From contig CAVXVB010000008.1 in the NCBI GenBank assembly GCA_963765205.1, forward strand, positions 160,001 to 224,000: 64,000 nt of DNA. The letters are read 5' to 3'. The notes beneath the pieces are model-generated. The model worked only from the letters and a program-made list of their open reading frames with translations, made no database searches and was not told where the DNA came from. Position numbers and translations under genes: made by a program. The stretch is from an uncultured Verrucomicrobiae bacterium. GTDB lineage: Bacteria; Verrucomicrobiota; Verrucomicrobiia; Opitutales; JABDGR01. This document shows positions 17,811 to 63,424 of this stretch, in pieces. Numbering within the stretch: position 1 is the stretch's first letter; each line of letters opens with the position of its first letter.

Positions 17811-17893
17811 TTTGACAGAATTAACAGAATTTACAGAATTATCCTTAATAATCATCCCAAGACTAATTTTGTTAATTCCGTTAATTCTGTCAA
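17811..17893. repeat. Inverted pair of 9-nt tandem arms (ACAGAATTW family)
   Basis: ttgacagaattaacagaatttacagaatt ... aattttgttaattccgttaattctgtcaa. Confidence 0.9.
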
Positions 17894-21168: not shown

Positions 21169-22326
21169 TCACGCGTAAGGAAATTTCGCCCACTTCGCGC
21201 CGGCTTTCGCGCTTTTGACCGCAGTTTCGATGAAGGTCATCCCGATGACGCCGTCTTCGATGGTGGGATAATCGAGGTCCTTGGGCAGGGGCCGGCCTTC
21301 GACTTCTGCCTCAATGGCGCGGAAGGCTTCGAGGTAAATATTGGCGAAGGCCTCGAGGTAGCCCTCGGGGTGGCCAAAGGGGATGCGCGTGAATTTCTTC
21401 GCGGTGGCGCCGACGTAGCTGTTGCCCCGCCGCCAGATTTCGCGCGGGCGGTCGGGATATTTCATGATGAGTTCGTTGGGATGCTCCTGGTGCCATTCCA
21501 ACGCCGCCTGGTCGCCGTAAACACGGATGTTGAGGTTATTTTCCTCGCCGATGGAAATTTGCGAGGCGTGCAGCACGCCCTTCGCGCCGCCGGCGAAACG
21601 CACGAGGATGTTCGCGTCATCCTCGAGCGCGCGGCCGGGGACGAAGGTCGTGAGGTCGGCGCAGAGAGACTCGATGCGCAGGCCGGTGATGTAACGGGCG
21701 AGGTTTTCGGCGTGGGTGCCGATGTCGCCCAGGCAGCAGGCTGCGCCGGATTTCTTCGGGTCGGCGCGCCAGGCCGCCTGCTTCTGGCCGGTGGTTTCGA
21801 GACGCTGCCAGAGCCAGCCTTGCGGGTATTCGACGACGACCTTGCGAATTTTACCGAGGCGGCCCGACTGCACCAGTTCGCGCGCCTGCTTGACCATGGC
21901 GTTGCCGGTATAGTTGTGCGTGAGCACAAAGACTTTTTTGGTCCGGCGCACGATCTCGCGCAATTTTTTCGCCTCGGCGAGGTTGAGCGTCGCGGGCTTG
22001 TCGCACACGACGTTGAAGCCGGCCTCAAGCAGGAGTTTCGCCGGCGGGAAATGCTCGTGGTTGGGCGTGACGATGACGACGAAATCGAGCCGCGTGAGCG
22101 CGGGCATTTTCGACTCGGCTTTCACCATCTCGGCATAGGTGGCATAAACGCGCGCGGGGTCGAGCAGCAAATCCTGCCCGGTCAGGCGCGAATTTTCCGG
22201 GTCGGCGGAAAAGCAGCCGGCGACCAGCTCGGCCTTGCCGTCCATGACGGCCACAATGCGGTGCACCGCGCCGATAAAAGCGCCGCGCCCGCCACCAATC
22301 ATGCCAAAACGTAGTTTGCGTTTCAT
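21169..22326 (-). CDS. Gfo/Idh/MocA family oxidoreductase
   Basis: [33 protein letters not shown]. Confidence 0.93.
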
Positions 22327-22344
22327 GGGGAAGAAGAAGAAGGA

Positions 22345-22798
22345 TTAACCACGGAGAACACGGAGGACACAGAGGGGTTAAATGATAAGGCGTTTGATAC
22401 CTTGTTTGAGTAGACGAACCTTAAAGTTGACAAGCCAGCCTATGCGGTTGTTGGTGAGGCGCAGGTAGTCAGCACTTGGGCTTCATGAATCGGTAACAAC
22501 TCCTCCACCGTTTTCAACTCAACAATAATGGAATCTTCCACCAGCAGGTCGATGCGAAATCCTTCATCGAAAGTCAGGCCATCGTATTCCACCGGCACGA
22601 TTTTTTGACGCTCAGCCCGCAACCCTCGTTTGCGAATTTCGTCGGCGAGACAAGCCTCGTAAACGGATTCCAACAAGCCGGGTCCCAGCGTTGTATGCAC
22701 CTGCAATGCCGCCGCCAAAATCCGGCCTGTAAGTTTTTCTTGTTCCATAAAGACAATTTCTCCGTGTCCTCCGTGTCCTCCGTGTTCTCCGTGTTTAA
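22345..22798. mobile_element. Putative GxxExxY element: gene bracketed by inverted 9-nt tandem arms
   Basis: Left arm ttaaccacggagaacacggaggacacagagg (22345-22375); right arm ctccgtgtcctccgtgtcctccgtgttctccgtgtttaa (22760-22798). Mobility is inferred. Confidence 0.55.
22378..22748 (-). CDS. GxxExxY family protein (PD-(D/E)XK-like); one-base deletion near 22468
   Basis: LGPGLLESVYE, RIDLLVEDSIIVELK. Restoring one base after HEAQVL gives TYLRLTNNRIGWLVNFKVRLLKQGIKRLII*. Confidence 0.9.
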
Positions 22799-22804
22799 AT
22801 TTCT

Positions 22805-23848
<1,044 letters not shown>

Positions 23849-23879: not shown

Positions 23880-24236
23880 TTACAATGACAAAAGAATTCG
23901 CAGCCGGTCTTCGACTTCAGCCATCGTGGCCGGGGCAACCATGCCCCAGCGGCGTTCCAGGCGCGCTTTGCTCACCGAACGAATCGCTTCGCACATGATG
24001 GCGGACGGAGCTTTGAGTCCACCCTCGGAAGGTTCGGCGACCACATGCCAGGGAATCGAACGCAGGTTGGTGGTAATGGGAATCGCCACCACCAGATCCG
24101 CCCCACTCTGGTTAAATTCCGCCACCGAGACGACGAGCACTGGCCGACGCCCCGCTTGCTCGCGTCCCTTGATGGGATCGAGATCAGCCAACCAAACTTC
24201 GCCTCGTTGCGGATTTATGGAAGTGGTGGGCGCCAT
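23880..24236 (-). CDS. PemK/MazF family toxin
   Basis: [40 protein letters not shown]. Confidence 0.92.
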
Positions 24237-24239
24237 GGT

Positions 24240-24489
24240 TCAGCGGCTTTTCAATCCATCAGCTAAGTGTGACCTCCCACTCACCCAACTCCGACTGGTG
24301 CTTTTTCCAGGCCCGCGGGTCGCGGCGCAACGCGTCGTAGGCTGCGCTGGCTTCTTCCAGGAATTTCTGGCGACGGTAGGTTTCCAGCGCTTGGTCAAGA
24401 ACCTCCGACATGCTGGCATCGTCTGCGGAAGCAAGACGGCGCAGCAACGCGTGGCCCTTGGACGAAATACGGACGGTGGTGGCGGACAT
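24240..24489 (-). CDS. Putative RHH antitoxin; apparent +1 frameshift near 24263
   Basis: TTVRIS N-terminal strand, directly upstream of the toxin. Removing one base gives the C-terminus EWEVTLADGLKSR*; as written it stops at 24259. Confidence 0.8.
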
Positions 24490-24494
24490 GAGCC

Positions 24495-24524
24495 TATTCA
24501 GGCCTTTGAATACATTTTTGTCAA
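24495..24524 (-). promoter_or_regulatory. Candidate TA promoter/operator
   Basis: TTGACA on the minus strand (24519-24524) and inverted repeat TATTCA-N6-TGAATA (24495-24512) just upstream of the antitoxin ATG. Confidence 0.5.
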
Positions 24525-24549
24525 CAATTTTGGCTACCAAAATGACATC

Positions 24550-45352: not shown

Positions 45353-45411
45353 ACCACAAAGGTCACGGAGCACACCGAGGAAATTCAACTCCAAATCCGA
45401 AACTCGAAACT
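45349..45411. repeat. Single CACGGAG-family arm plus AAACTCG tail on the pyrF stop codon
   Basis: ttgaaccacaaaggtcacggagcacaccgaggaaattcaactccaaatccgaaactcgaaact. Confidence 0.8.
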
Positions 45412-50859: not shown

Positions 50860-53040
50860 ATGCCCACCGGCCCCACCACCGCGTCCGAGGCACGGCGCCA
50901 GTCCAACCTGGCGTTCTCCTTCTTCTGGCTCAAGCCCGAGGAGCGTGCGGCCATGTCGGTGTTCTACGATTTTTGCCGGCAAGTGGACGACATCGCCGAC
51001 GACATGGCCGCGCCCGTGCCGGAGAAAACCGCCGCGCTGGACGCCTGGCGCGCGGACCTCGTCGCCATCGCCAACCGGAAAGAACCCGCCCAACCGCTCG
51101 CGCGGGCACTCGCGCCGGTGGTCGCCCGCTTCGGCGTCGAGGTCAAAAATTTGCACGATATTGTGAACGGCGTGGCGCAGGACTTGGAGCCGCGCGCCTA
51201 CGCAAACTTCGAACAATTGCGCGGCTACTGCTACGGCGTGGCGTCGGCCGTCGGCCTGGTGTCCATCCGCATTTTCGGCTGCCGCGACGCGCGCTGCCCG
51301 GCGTTCGCGGAAAATCTCGGCTACGCGCTGCAACTGACCAACATTTTGCGCGACGTGGTCGAAGACCAGCGTGTTTACGGCCGCATTTACCTGCCGTGTG
51401 ACGAGATGGCCGCGTTCGGCGTCACGCCGGAGCAGCTTGCCGAGCCAAACGCGCACCCGGACTGCGCGCGGCTGTTCCACCTGCAATATTTCCGCGCCAA
51501 GCATTATTTCAACAAGGCTCGGCGGTTGCTGCCGGCGGAGGAGCGCAAGAATTTGCGCGCCGCGCTGATCATGGCCGCGTTCTACGAGGACATTCTCGAT
51601 AAAATTGCGCGCGGCGGATTTCAACTTTCCGAACAGCGCGTGCGCATCGGCAAGCTGCGAAAATTGCGCTTGGTGGCGCAGGTTTGGCGCGGACTCAGCC
51701 GGCCGTTGCCGAAATTAGCGCCGCCGGGCCGTGTGGCGGTATTGGGCGCGGGTGTGGCCGGCTTGAGCGCGGCGCTGGCGCTGGCCGAACAGGGCTGGGC
51801 CGTAAATGTTTACGAGGCGAAAAATTTTCCCGGCGGGCGCGCGTCGAGTTTGCGCGACGCGGCCAGCGGGCTGACCCTCGACAACGGCCAGCACGTCGTC
51901 ATGGGTTGTTACCACGCTTTTCTACGGCTGCTGGACCGCCTCGGCGCGCGCGACCGCCTGGCGGAATCGCCGGCGCTGCGCGTGGACTACGTCGCGCCCG
52001 AAGGAAAGTGGTCGCGCCTGGCGGCGGCGGCTTGCCCCGCGCCGTGGCACCTGCTGGTGGGACTGGGAAAATTCAGCGAGTTGAACACCGTGGATCGTTG
52101 GGGCATCCTGCGCCTCGGCCTGGCACTGAAGTTCGGTGCAACGCCTGGCGAAAACGAAACCGTGGCGCAATGGCTGACGCGCCACCGCCAAACGCCCGGC
52201 GCGGTGCGCGCGCTGTGGGAGCCGTTTTGCCTCGCGGCGCTGAACGAGCCCATGGCGACCGCCAGCGCGCGCTTGCTGGCGGAAACGATGCGCCGGTCCC
52301 TTTTCGGCTCAAAAAAAGATTCAGCCATATTTTTTGCGCGCGTCGGCTTGAGCGATTTGTTCCAACCCAACGCCGAAATTTATTTGCGGGCGACCGGCGG
52401 CGGCCTTCATTTTCGCACGCAAGCCGTCAGTCTCAATTTTGAGAGCGAAGGCGTGTATGTGGAAACGGCAAAAGGCGAAACGGTTGCCGCCGATTACGTC
52501 ATTTCCGCGCTGCCCTGGGCGGCCCTGCGCTCGCTGCTGCCGGCCGGCGGACCGTTGCACGAGCAACTGGGAAAGTTCACCTCCGCGGGAATTCTAAACA
52601 TCCACCTGCTCTGCGACCGGAAGCTCTTCGACGCGCCGTTCGCGGGCCTGCTCGACTCGCCATTCCACTGGATTTTCGACCGTTCCGACCATCTGCCGCC
52701 GGAACGCCAGGAACGCGAGTTCCTCTACGCCGTCACGATGAGCGCGGCGGGCGAAGCCTGGCTCGAACGCAAAAGCGAATTGATTCTGGCCGCGGTGCGC
52801 ACGGAACTCGCGCGCTTTTTCCCCGCCGCGCGCGAAGCGAAATTTCTGCGCGAACTGGTCATCAAGACCAAGGATGCAACCTTTGCCGCGCGCCCGGAAG
52901 TTGAGCCGGCGCGCCCCGGCCCGCGCACCGCGTGGAAGAATTTCCTCCTCGCCGGCGACTGGACGGCGACCAATCTGCCCGCCACCCTCGAAAGCGCGGC
53001 CCTCAGCGGCGAAACCGCCGCCCGCGCGGTGGATGAATAA
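50860..53040 (+). CDS. HpnD-HpnE fusion (presqualene diphosphate synthase + hydroxysqualene dehydroxylase)
   Basis: N-terminal FCRQVDDIAD, YCYGVASAVG, QLTNILRDV; C-terminal GAGVAGL, GGRA.S, DNGQH, LAGDWT..LPATLESA. Confidence 0.9.
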   Translation: MPTGPTTASEARRQSNLAFSFFWLKPEERAAMSVFYDFCRQVDDIADDMAAPVPEKTAALDAWRADLVAIANRKEPAQPLARALAPVVARFGVEVKNLHDIVNGVAQDLEPRAYANFEQLRGYCYGVASAVGLVSIRIFGCRDARCPAFAENLGYALQLTNILRDVVEDQRVYGRIYLPCDEMAAFGVTPEQLAEPNAHPDCARLFHLQYFRAKHYFNKARRLLPAEERKNLRAALIMAAFYEDILDKIARGGFQLSEQRVRIGKLRKLRLVAQVWRGLSRPLPKLAPPGRVAVLGAGVAGLSAALALAEQGWAVNVYEAKNFPGGRASSLRDAASGLTLDNGQHVVMGCYHAFLRLLDRLGARDRLAESPALRVDYVAPEGKWSRLAAAACPAPWHLLVGLGKFSELNTVDRWGILRLGLALKFGATPGENETVAQWLTRHRQTPGAVRALWEPFCLAALNEPMATASARLLAETMRRSLFGSKKDSAIFFARVGLSDLFQPNAEIYLRATGGGLHFRTQAVSLNFESEGVYVETAKGETVAADYVISALPWAALRSLLPAGGPLHEQLGKFTSAGILNIHLLCDRKLFDAPFAGLLDSPFHWIFDRSDHLPPERQEREFLYAVTMSAAGEAWLERKSELILAAVRTELARFFPAAREAKFLRELVIKTKDATFAARPEVEPARPGPRTAWKNFLLAGDWTATNLPATLESAALSGETAARAVDE

Positions 53041-53045
53041 GAAAT

Positions 53046-53143
53046 TTAACCACAGAGGACACGGAGAGCACGGAGAAGATCGTTTCAAGTTTCGGGTTTC
53101 GAGTTGAATTTTCTCCGTGTCCTCTGTGTTCTCCGTGGTTCAA
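53046..53143. repeat. Gene-less inverted pair of CACGGAG-family 9-nt arms
   Basis: ttaaccacagaggacacggagagcacggagaa ... ttctccgtgtcctctgtgttctccgtggttcaa; contains the gltX stop codon. Confidence 0.92.
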
Positions 53144-56387: not shown

Positions 56388-56460
56388 ACCACGGAGAACA
56401 CGGAGGTCACGGAGGAAATTCAACTCGAAACCCGCCCCCCTCCGTGTCCTCCGTGGTTAA
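56384..56460. repeat. Gene-less inverted pair of CACGGAG-family 9-nt arms
   Basis: ttgaaccacggagaacacggaggtcacggagg ... cctccgtgtcctccgtggttaa; contains the M14 peptidase stop codon. Confidence 0.92.
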
Positions 56461-63322: not shown

Positions 63323-63424
63323 TTCACCGCAAAGGCCGCAAAGGGAATTTTTTACCACGGATTTCACGGATGCCACGGATTGGTCGGGTGCTTTTTATCC
63401 GTGCTATCCGAATAATCCGTGGTT
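63323..63424. repeat. Composite 9-nt element: ACCGCAAAG arm plus inverted CACGGAT arms
   Basis: ttcaccgcaaaggccgcaaagg; accacggatttcacggatgccacggatt ... atccgtgctatccgaataatccgtggt. Confidence 0.85.

Follow-up and report, generated by a model that had tools for sequence, protein, structure and literature searches.

A GxxExxY nuclease-fold gene between inverted arms of 7-base words: a dead copy from a widespread cassette family that appears to be undescribed

Background

The window analyzed here, a 64,000-nt stretch of one contig from an uncultured Verrucomicrobiae bacterium (genome G000), contains a small gene of the GxxExxY family enclosed by inverted arms of short tandem repeats, which raises the question of whether gene and arms belong together and what such a unit might do. 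In the portions of the literature available to us, the family is named (PMC12085832, PMC9756366), a GxxExxY gene is placed beside a CRISPR-type reverse transcriptase (10.1101/2021.01.26.428298), the QxxxY motif is described (PMC2475608), and PDDEXK_3 is given as a family of unknown function with multiple transfers (PMC3424549). A literature search that reached few subscription papers and no supplements found no published link between GxxExxY proteins and repeats, and no function in print. The cassette family is widespread and apparently undescribed, and the copy in the window is dead.

The cassette and its junction

The 478-nt spacer between a sugar phosphate isomerase/epimerase-like gene (22805-23848, minus strand; IolE/IolO matches weak and below cut-off) and a Gfo/Idh/MocA-type oxidoreductase gene (21169-22326, minus strand; matches below cut-off) holds both arms and the GxxExxY gene, a cassette of roughly 450 bases. 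The arrangement described in the initial annotation is thereby largely confirmed, with three words in one arm and four in the other. The arm downstream of the gene (22345-22377, plus strand) is comprised of TTAAC followed by CACGGAG, CACGGAG and CACAGAG at a 9-nt period; in the sequence the three CACRGAG words span 22350-22374, and TTAAC plus words span 22345-22374. The arm upstream of the gene (22760-22798, minus strand) carries TTAAA and four CACGGAG words at a 9-nt period, the words at 22760-22793 and TTAA beyond them at 22795-22798, and both arms face inward. The stop codon of the epimerase-like gene lies 4 nt outside the A-rich pad of the upstream arm. The GxxExxY / PDDEXK_3 gene itself (22378-22748, minus strand) begins with a start codon (22748-22746) that is separated from the right arm by 11 nt, as originally stated, and its far stop (22380-22378) lies 3 nt, not 2 nt, from the last left-arm word. 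The window contains 27 copies of the word CACGGAG, whereas 8.8 +/- 2.9 are expected by chance, and 0 of 100 shuffles contained as many as 27. Directly upstream of the epimerase-like gene, at 23880-24540, is a two-gene module that we take to be a PemK/MazF-like toxin and a short partner.

A frameshift near 22467 splits the gene's match to TIGR04256 between two frames, with E 1e-32 over profile positions 2-90 and E 2.6e-4 over positions 91-116 (window-frame score 112.9 bits, cut-off 35). The open frame at 22748-22440 encodes 102 aa, and the last 26 positions of the family are found in another frame; Thr7, D67, E77, K79 and Q91 are retained while Y95 onward is lost. Assembly error as the source of the frameshift is unsupported, since a separate assembly of run X1 is identical over 22281-23027 with no gap. 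The frameshift is thus not an artefact of one assembler, although run X1 is probably the source sample of the window and hence not independent biology. Joints in run X1 that skip the gene were rejected as excision products, as they carry the interiors of gene-less elements located elsewhere in the genome. The gene is the sole family member in the G000 assembly (92% complete). Frameshifted and the only copy in that assembly, it is not autonomous now, and the autonomous element that had been proposed for this locus was not borne out.

Examination of the same junction in relatives revealed the presence/absence variation expected of a mobile unit by the initial annotation. An intact cassette with the same word is found in the congener G003 (85% identical over 94 residues, 476-nt spacer), while the junction is empty in G006 (18-nt spacer). 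G004 has a 38-nt spacer with what looks like one worn arm, G008 has a 172-nt spacer with gene-less arms, and G105 and G143 hold gene-less pairs of related words. The gene is present at just two of the 30 epimerase loci examined, those of G000 and G003. Over codons 1-93, the G000 and G003 cassette genes differ by 38 synonymous and 14 amino-acid-changing codons, and the neighbor gene differs by 142 and 42, respectively, of 385 codons, giving synonymous change per codon of 0.41 for the cassette versus 0.37 for the neighbor. By these counts, the cassette was vertically inherited here since the split from G003, under purifying selection, and broke recently, so that movement is slow.

The GxxExxY protein

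The intact G003 orthologue matches, besides TIGR04256, only PF13366 among profile families (E 2.6e-42; 144.3 versus a cut-off of 22). In 91 proteins G24, E27, Y30, D67, K79 and F109 are invariant, and E77, Q91 and Y95 are conserved in at least 90%. The structure predicted for the intact protein (pLDDT 95.9) has a PD-(D/E)XK fold. The PD-(D/E)XK-type motif initially read from the window is upheld by D67/E77/K79 conservation and by the modelled fold, and nuclease activity is predicted from the conserved catalytic residues. Nearly all top structural matches were PD-(D/E)XK enzymes. The nearest fold, Cas4 SSO0001 (Foldseek E 3.4e-3; Z 8.0, rmsd 3.7, 99 aligned), was tied with the restriction-type folds BpuSI, AF1548 and SwaI, so that superfamily membership alone is shown. 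Foldseek yielded no match at E<=0.001, and no sequence relative was found in the PDB (best E 0.23).

A homodimer prediction scored 0.00 and yielded no verdict from the model. Two full domains are present in 10 of 120 listed longer homologues; in nine of these only the first domain carries the catalytic motif, a hint of a dimer with a single active site. Proteins of ~265 aa with two GxxExxY domains, the second without the catalytic D and ExK, are P0002-P0006, P0008, P0011, P0034 and P0051. In the remaining long forms the domain is fused to one of many unrelated host enzymes, and two of those examined have arm-like translated linkers. RNase H-GxxExxY fusions account for nine of the 120 listed (P0009, P0010, P0012, P0013, P0016, P0020, P0022, P0024 and P0031) and fusions to HAD phosphatases are also many; both types may result from read-through where the junction is fixed. 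The gene matches no transposase family, and no transposase fusion occurs among the 120 longer homologues listed.

Arms across phyla

Bracketing of GxxExxY genes by inverted arms holds in many phyla. An inverted-repeat score of at least 24 between flanks was observed in 89 of 105 full-flank loci (including the window locus and two duplicated pairs) versus 3 of 475 shifted controls, and in 1581 of 10920 cross-locus flank pairings. With metagenome and viral loci added to the first 105, arms were found in 149 of 181 loci, derived from 194 examined by removal of three labelled human-gut loci and duplicates. In held-out loci from three phyla the values were 85 of 106 versus 3 of 411 controls. The enrichment of GxxExxY genes between such arms, which the initial annotation had offered as a test, is consequently found in both sets. 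The typical arm contains three units of a 7-base word, C(A/G)CN(A/G)A(G/T/A), at a spacing of 8, 9 or 10 and usually preceded by AC. The gene is present in 58 of 121 Verrucomicrobiota genomes and in 36/61 and 21/61 genomes of two other phyla, and its orientation is that of the upstream neighbor at 125 of 162 loci. Plasmids seldom carry the family (7 of 72,556 records), none of 50,697 phage records does, and viral contigs contributed only 1 and 3 loci.

Residue-to-base covariation

To relate protein to arm, residues were scanned against word bases in the 105 of 181 loci that passed a word filter, which presupposes a CRCNRAN word; base 5 was clear in 101. In this discovery scan, Thr7 was accompanied by G at base 5 in 32 of 32 cases and other residues in 9 of 69. 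The prediction was then fixed and the same pipeline applied to the held-out set (52 of 106 loci passing the filter, 48 with a clear base 5), yielding 25/25 for Thr7 and 6/23 for other residues. In the downstream arm alone, which lies 350 nt from codon 7, counts with and without G5 were 30/0 for Thr7 versus 9/57 for others, and 24/0 versus 6/15 in the held-out set. The rule holds in the upstream and downstream arms separately and is therefore not a product of coding overlap. Most exceptions to it carry Ser7, and the window protein conforms, having Thr7 and arms with G5.

On a tree built without residues 1-12, the Thr7 and G5 traits each change 23-24 times. Considering all branches, 23 independent pairs were obtained, 15 changing the same way and 0 against, the top result among 282 residue states. 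Restricting the count to well-supported branches leaves just 4 independent pairs, with 3.7 the same way and 0 against (p = 0.125). A weaker link joins Asn4 to A at base 4 (12/1 versus 21/29; held-out 12/0 versus 8/12) and is less independent, since it was found after pooling. A code for base 7 is unsupported, as it follows one deep split (L25 versus F25 clade) with 1 independent pair, and base 2 shows a weak link to Arg102 only. Direct read-out of base 5 by residue 7 is likely, as the simplest cause of these sequence associations. The initial annotation held that the protein recognizes the arms: the covariation of protein and arm speaks for this, and direct binding is what we infer from it. 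The same data bear on the idea that the arms are neutral slippage repeats gathering in A+T-rich spacers, with the gene a hitch-hiker. Arrays of 7, 8 and 9 bases do abound in the genome, but the fixed number of units, their inward orientation, gene-linked abundance and above all the held-out covariation leave this explanation effectively refuted.

Arm pairing

The arms fold into long stems in prediction, and a predicted RNA stem closes the whole cassette. If pairing were selected, the two arms of an element should match each other. At variable positions, paired arms matched at 0.571 versus 0.585 between elements (n 18, p 0.65), and in a second comparison paired arms matched at 0.699 versus 0.666 for unrelated arms (n 19, p 0.15); only base 8 matched slightly better in register (0.53 versus 0.48). 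Furthermore, G-U-compatible differences were not enriched on the sense strand of gene-bearing loci (152 versus 127, p 0.15). Without compensatory pairing or wobble bias, independent binding words are favored over a selected RNA or DNA stem, and the cruciform or hairpin substrate considered at the outset is disfavored.

These results weigh upon two other explanations. In the first, the arms form a stem in the operon mRNA, like that of a REP, a terminator or a 23S rRNA-type intervening sequence, and the protein binds this RNA or processes it. Such a role would suit the co-orientation of the gene (125/162), the closing stem, the fold shared with tRNA splicing endonucleases, and the location of gene-less CACGGAG pairs, a median of ~15 nt after a stop codon and at divergent junctions in 0 of 29 cases versus 19.5% (p 0.004; junction classes rest on a crude gene-calling model). 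Pairs of the sister word CACGGAT are without this bias, 5 of 24 being at divergent junctions. Together with the missing compensation and sense-strand G-U bias, an Rfam search with no match near threshold at the arms (one chance hit, E 0.99), and a promoter and terminator scan with nothing at the arms, this makes an RNA element very unlikely.

In the second, the protein is an Ssn-like nuclease that acts on single-stranded DNA as it is taken up or replicated, reading the word or the paired arms and cutting alongside, thereby tuning the recombination of incoming DNA, with the spread of arms as a by-product. The layout is the same as that of NTS-ssnA-NTS in the available part of PMC11893778, the protein has the QxxxY motif, its nearest folds include Cas4, MGME1 and nucleases of the lambda and RecB types, and the predicted stems are long. 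The failure of paired arms to match better and the absence of wobble bias argue against a hairpin, though not against unpaired strands, and 25 of the 87 CACGGAG arms in G000 are single. An Ssn-like role is a serious candidate that we nevertheless consider unlikely.

Gene-less copies and arm abundance

The arms had been reported to occur without the gene three more times in the window. Two of these are full CACGGAG pairs, at 53051-53137 (3+3 words) and 56390-56455 (3+2 words), which share an interior belonging to a 10-member cluster; the other is not a pair but a single degenerate arm (45355-45379, plus strand) followed by the same interior type. Gene-less pairs of the sister words CACGGAT (63356-63421) and ACAGAAT(T) (17815-17890) are also present, and GxxExxY genes with an ACAGAAT(T) arm exist in the congeners G002 and G003. 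Neither CACGGAG pair is found at the orthologous junction in any of the congeners compared, five for each. At the junction orthologous to window 53040-53139, G002 has an 878-nt insert with two short open frames (L366) in place of the gene-less pair.

In total, G000 holds 31 CACGGAG pairs, together with 25 CACGGAT pairs, 6 ACAGAAT pairs and 45 AAG-ending arms that are without a matching gene in the assembly. Interiors cluster across unrelated sites, with clusters of 10 and 4 among 29 CACGGAG interiors and of 6 and 5 among 25 CACGGAT interiors (nulls 1/2030 and 0/1500). The CACGGAG clusters are partly 7-base runs, 14 of the 29 gene-less interiors containing a 7-mer run, while the six interiors of the larger CACGGAT cluster consist of 79 nt that are not repeats, which implies that units were copied. 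The proposed spread of gene-less derivatives to intergenic sites is thus corroborated as copying. Gene-less interiors as remnants of the resident gene were rejected (best score 18 versus 19 for shuffled sequence).

Arm abundance tracks the gene. Among 121 Verrucomicrobiota genomes, an excess of at least five arms over two per gene is seen in 44 of the 58 that have the gene and in 3 of the 63 that do not (gene presence at E<=1e-25; kin not independent). Within genus g95, 12 arms occur in one gene-bearing genome and 0-1 in ten others, and within genus g110, 24 arms occur in the gene-bearing genome versus 0 in six. Up to 349 arms were counted in one genome. The word families of G000 that lack a matching gene in the assembly speak against a strict link.

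Other repeat systems share this genome. A general detector returned 81 7-base and 8 8-base pairs in G000, some around four-helix-bundle genes; about 80 gene-less 7-base pairs are present, and 7-base runs are often nested inside 9-period pairs. Five of the seven TIGR02436 (four-helix-bundle) genes are paired between inverted 7- or 8-base arms by this detector, and TIGR02436 genes lie between such arms at C2:247597, C8:327255, C9:523300, C9:1011290, C9:1138940 and C7:226172. Pairs with one word inside another word's arms (C7:317435, C9:1338027, C8:241366 and C9:529261) suggest that existing elements are insertion hot spots. A CACGGAT pair at C7:154253-155381 encloses a gene that is presumably an IS630-like transposase, judging from its translation. 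Three Y1 transposase genes have full-length matches that score above the cut-off; the inverted repeats around them, where there are any, are different ones of their own. Y1/RAYT-like genes with their own long inverted repeats lie at C5:148180 and C5:557983, and a hairpin related to these repeats is nested in an ACAGAAT pair at C9:1432405.

Cassette replacement and ends

No clean empty/filled pair with a footprint was found among close species; Azospirillum yielded replaced and decayed cassettes instead. Azospirillum G383 and G384 are sisters by their flanks, which are 92-99% identical up to the edges, but their cassettes are 62% alike and differ in word and residue 7 (Ser/A5 and Thr/G5, respectively). 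The cassettes of G421 and G395, also with sister flanks, are 64% alike at the same junction. The sister flanks are supported at 100/99 and 100/100. The exchange covers the entire spacer, including ~45 nt beyond the arm, and could be the work of ordinary homologous recombination alone. At the same junction, five genomes keep one arm and distant species retain worn remnants. Different protein clades also occupy shared junctions in the Opitutales, and two host junctions carry cassettes of different words or clades across families of the order (L002, L003, L006, L012, L167; L018, L030, L164).

The only recent multi-copy case is G029, with two identical intact copies and eight copies sharing one internal deletion at unrelated sites. 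These copies begin with GTT and end in stems resembling, by eye, the attC consensus, and the genome has a split integron-integrase-like gene. The integron-like loci are L150-L156, L158, L160 and L161, the deleted derivative being at no fewer than eight sites. As proof of self-mobility the G029 copies were set aside because of this integron-cassette context. At the window locus the next start codon lies 18 nt past the arm, and neither an attC-type end nor a GTT start was seen.

The TTAA at both outer ends is real in the window, but it is rare more generally, being present in 5 of the 31 CACGGAG pairs in G000 and at 5 of 157 loci with the gene, and is absent from the orthologous intact G003 cassette. 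It belongs to an arm-end consensus, W-T-K-A-A-C, and on these grounds a piggyBac-like target duplication was rejected; the TTAA is not a target-site duplication. Direct repeats of at least 6 nt accompany 8 of 31 CACGGAG pairs versus 12% between elements, with no excess for CACGGAT, and the copies may be too old.

Whole-spacer exchange and integron context lend themselves to an explanation in which the protein merely binds the arms as operators or protective sites, for autoregulation, addiction or blocking of replacement, and the movers are homologous recombination, integrons, RAYTs or the four-helix-bundle system. Entire intergenic regions were swapped in Azospirillum, the G029 copies sit in attC-like cassettes, and G000 has 3 Y1 genes, 7 four-helix-bundle genes and a 7-mer run in 14 of 29 gene-less interiors. 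On the other side, the Y1 genes have different inverted repeats of their own or none, surplus arms follow the GxxExxY gene across genomes and also within genera g95 and g110, and the catalytic residues are conserved. A protein that only binds is, in our estimation, quite unlikely.

Proposed mechanism

The reading that we consider somewhat probable, based on sequence comparisons and the modelled fold, is a selfish cassette whose nuclease likely binds the arms and cuts close to them, after which the unit would be moved by host repair. The intact protein would bind 7-base words through its first helix, in double-stranded DNA rather than a hairpin, with several subunits per arm at the 8-10 base spacing, and would nick or cut outside the words. 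Repair of the cut by the host might then copy or exchange the whole unit bounded by the arms, as well as its gene-less derivatives, so that cutting would drive both copying to new junctions and cassette-for-cassette replacement. We know of no strand-transfer chemistry for the PD-(D/E)XK fold, and host recombination or end-joining must therefore complete any movement. Of the original proposal that the protein spreads itself and gene-less derivatives, the copying of gene-less units and their co-occurrence with the gene across genomes stand, while movement of the gene by its own product is still a conjecture. A broader claim is put forward tentatively, as possible but doubtful: that GxxExxY genes, which are common in both bacteria and archaea, represent an undescribed class of minimal selfish element, in which a 120-residue PD-(D/E)XK nuclease with a helix-1 code would assemble on the tandem words flanking its gene on either side and, needing no transposase or recombinase, mobilize its cassette together with gene-less derivatives by the hundreds. 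The proteins would then constitute a natural family of tiny re-targetable nicking enzymes.

Comparison with known systems

Insertion sequences with MITEs have inverted ends and gene-less derivatives, and homing endonuclease genes replace alleles at fixed sites. Unlike the former, the GxxExxY cassette has no DDE, HUH, serine or tyrosine recombinase and no clear target duplication, and its gene-less CACGGAG interiors do not resemble the resident cassette; unlike the latter, its nuclease matches its own arms and not the empty site. The TIGR02436 cassettes have the same layout in the same genome, with inverted 7-/8-base arms, but their protein is without a nuclease motif and their words and period differ. 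Cas4/RecB-type nucleases (SSO0001, 4ic1; Pcal_0546, 4r5q) and Pfam PDDEXK_3 share the core fold, D...ExK and QxxxY; relative to the Cas4/RecB type, the GxxExxY protein is small (123 aa), has no Fe-S cysteines and is not in CRISPR loci here.

In the available parts of PMC3116915 and PMC3733652, REPIN/RAYT, REPtrons and TIRtrons likewise comprise a gene bracketed by cognate repeats, with enzyme type matched, and REPIN/RAYT includes gene-less inverted intergenic doublets that are seemingly non-autonomous. RAYT, according to the same material, is an HUH Y1 transposase, whereas the gene between the arms here is GxxExxY and the Y1 genes of G000 are without these arms. REPs are palindromes with a GTAG/CGTC tag, the GxxExxY arm units being non-palindromic 7-base words, and unlike in REPIN/RAYT as described there, the GxxExxY gene itself comes, goes and is replaced at many junctions. 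Convergent intergenic heptamer arrays near stop codons of Xanthomonas and Nostoc, in the accessible text of PMC4692102, are linked to no gene.

A similarly close likeness of layout is to NTS-ssnA-NTS (Chenal et al. 2025, PMC11893778). As far as the available portion of that paper extends, in both systems a gene for a small single-domain nuclease has its own repeat on either side, the repeat is also dispersed in the genome, there is no transposase, and many enzyme-repeat pairs of different specificity exist. The enzyme there is GIY-YIG and here PD-(D/E)XK (only PF13366/TIGR04256 match); the repeat is a single 20-50 nt hairpin there, whereas here each of the inverted arms is a tandem run of 7-base words spaced at 8-10 nt; flanking on both sides occurs in 42% and about 80%, respectively; and hairpin pairing matters in Ssn/NTS but is without a selection signal in the GxxExxY arms. 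The layout is thus that of NTS-ssnA-NTS and REPIN/RAYT, in so far as these sources describe them, and the cassette lies outside both by enzyme fold and repeat structure.

The arms give the GxxExxY family a named candidate substrate, and Thr7/G5 provides a one-residue test of specificity. If the protein drives the spread, a large class of 8-10-base intergenic arrays would be explained and a mode of mobility without a transposase added; a 123-residue sequence-reading nuclease with many natural specificities would, if true, be a useful tool family. The system would be categorically new if transposase-free mobility were shown, and otherwise is kin to the known theme of a nuclease flanked by its own dispersed repeat.
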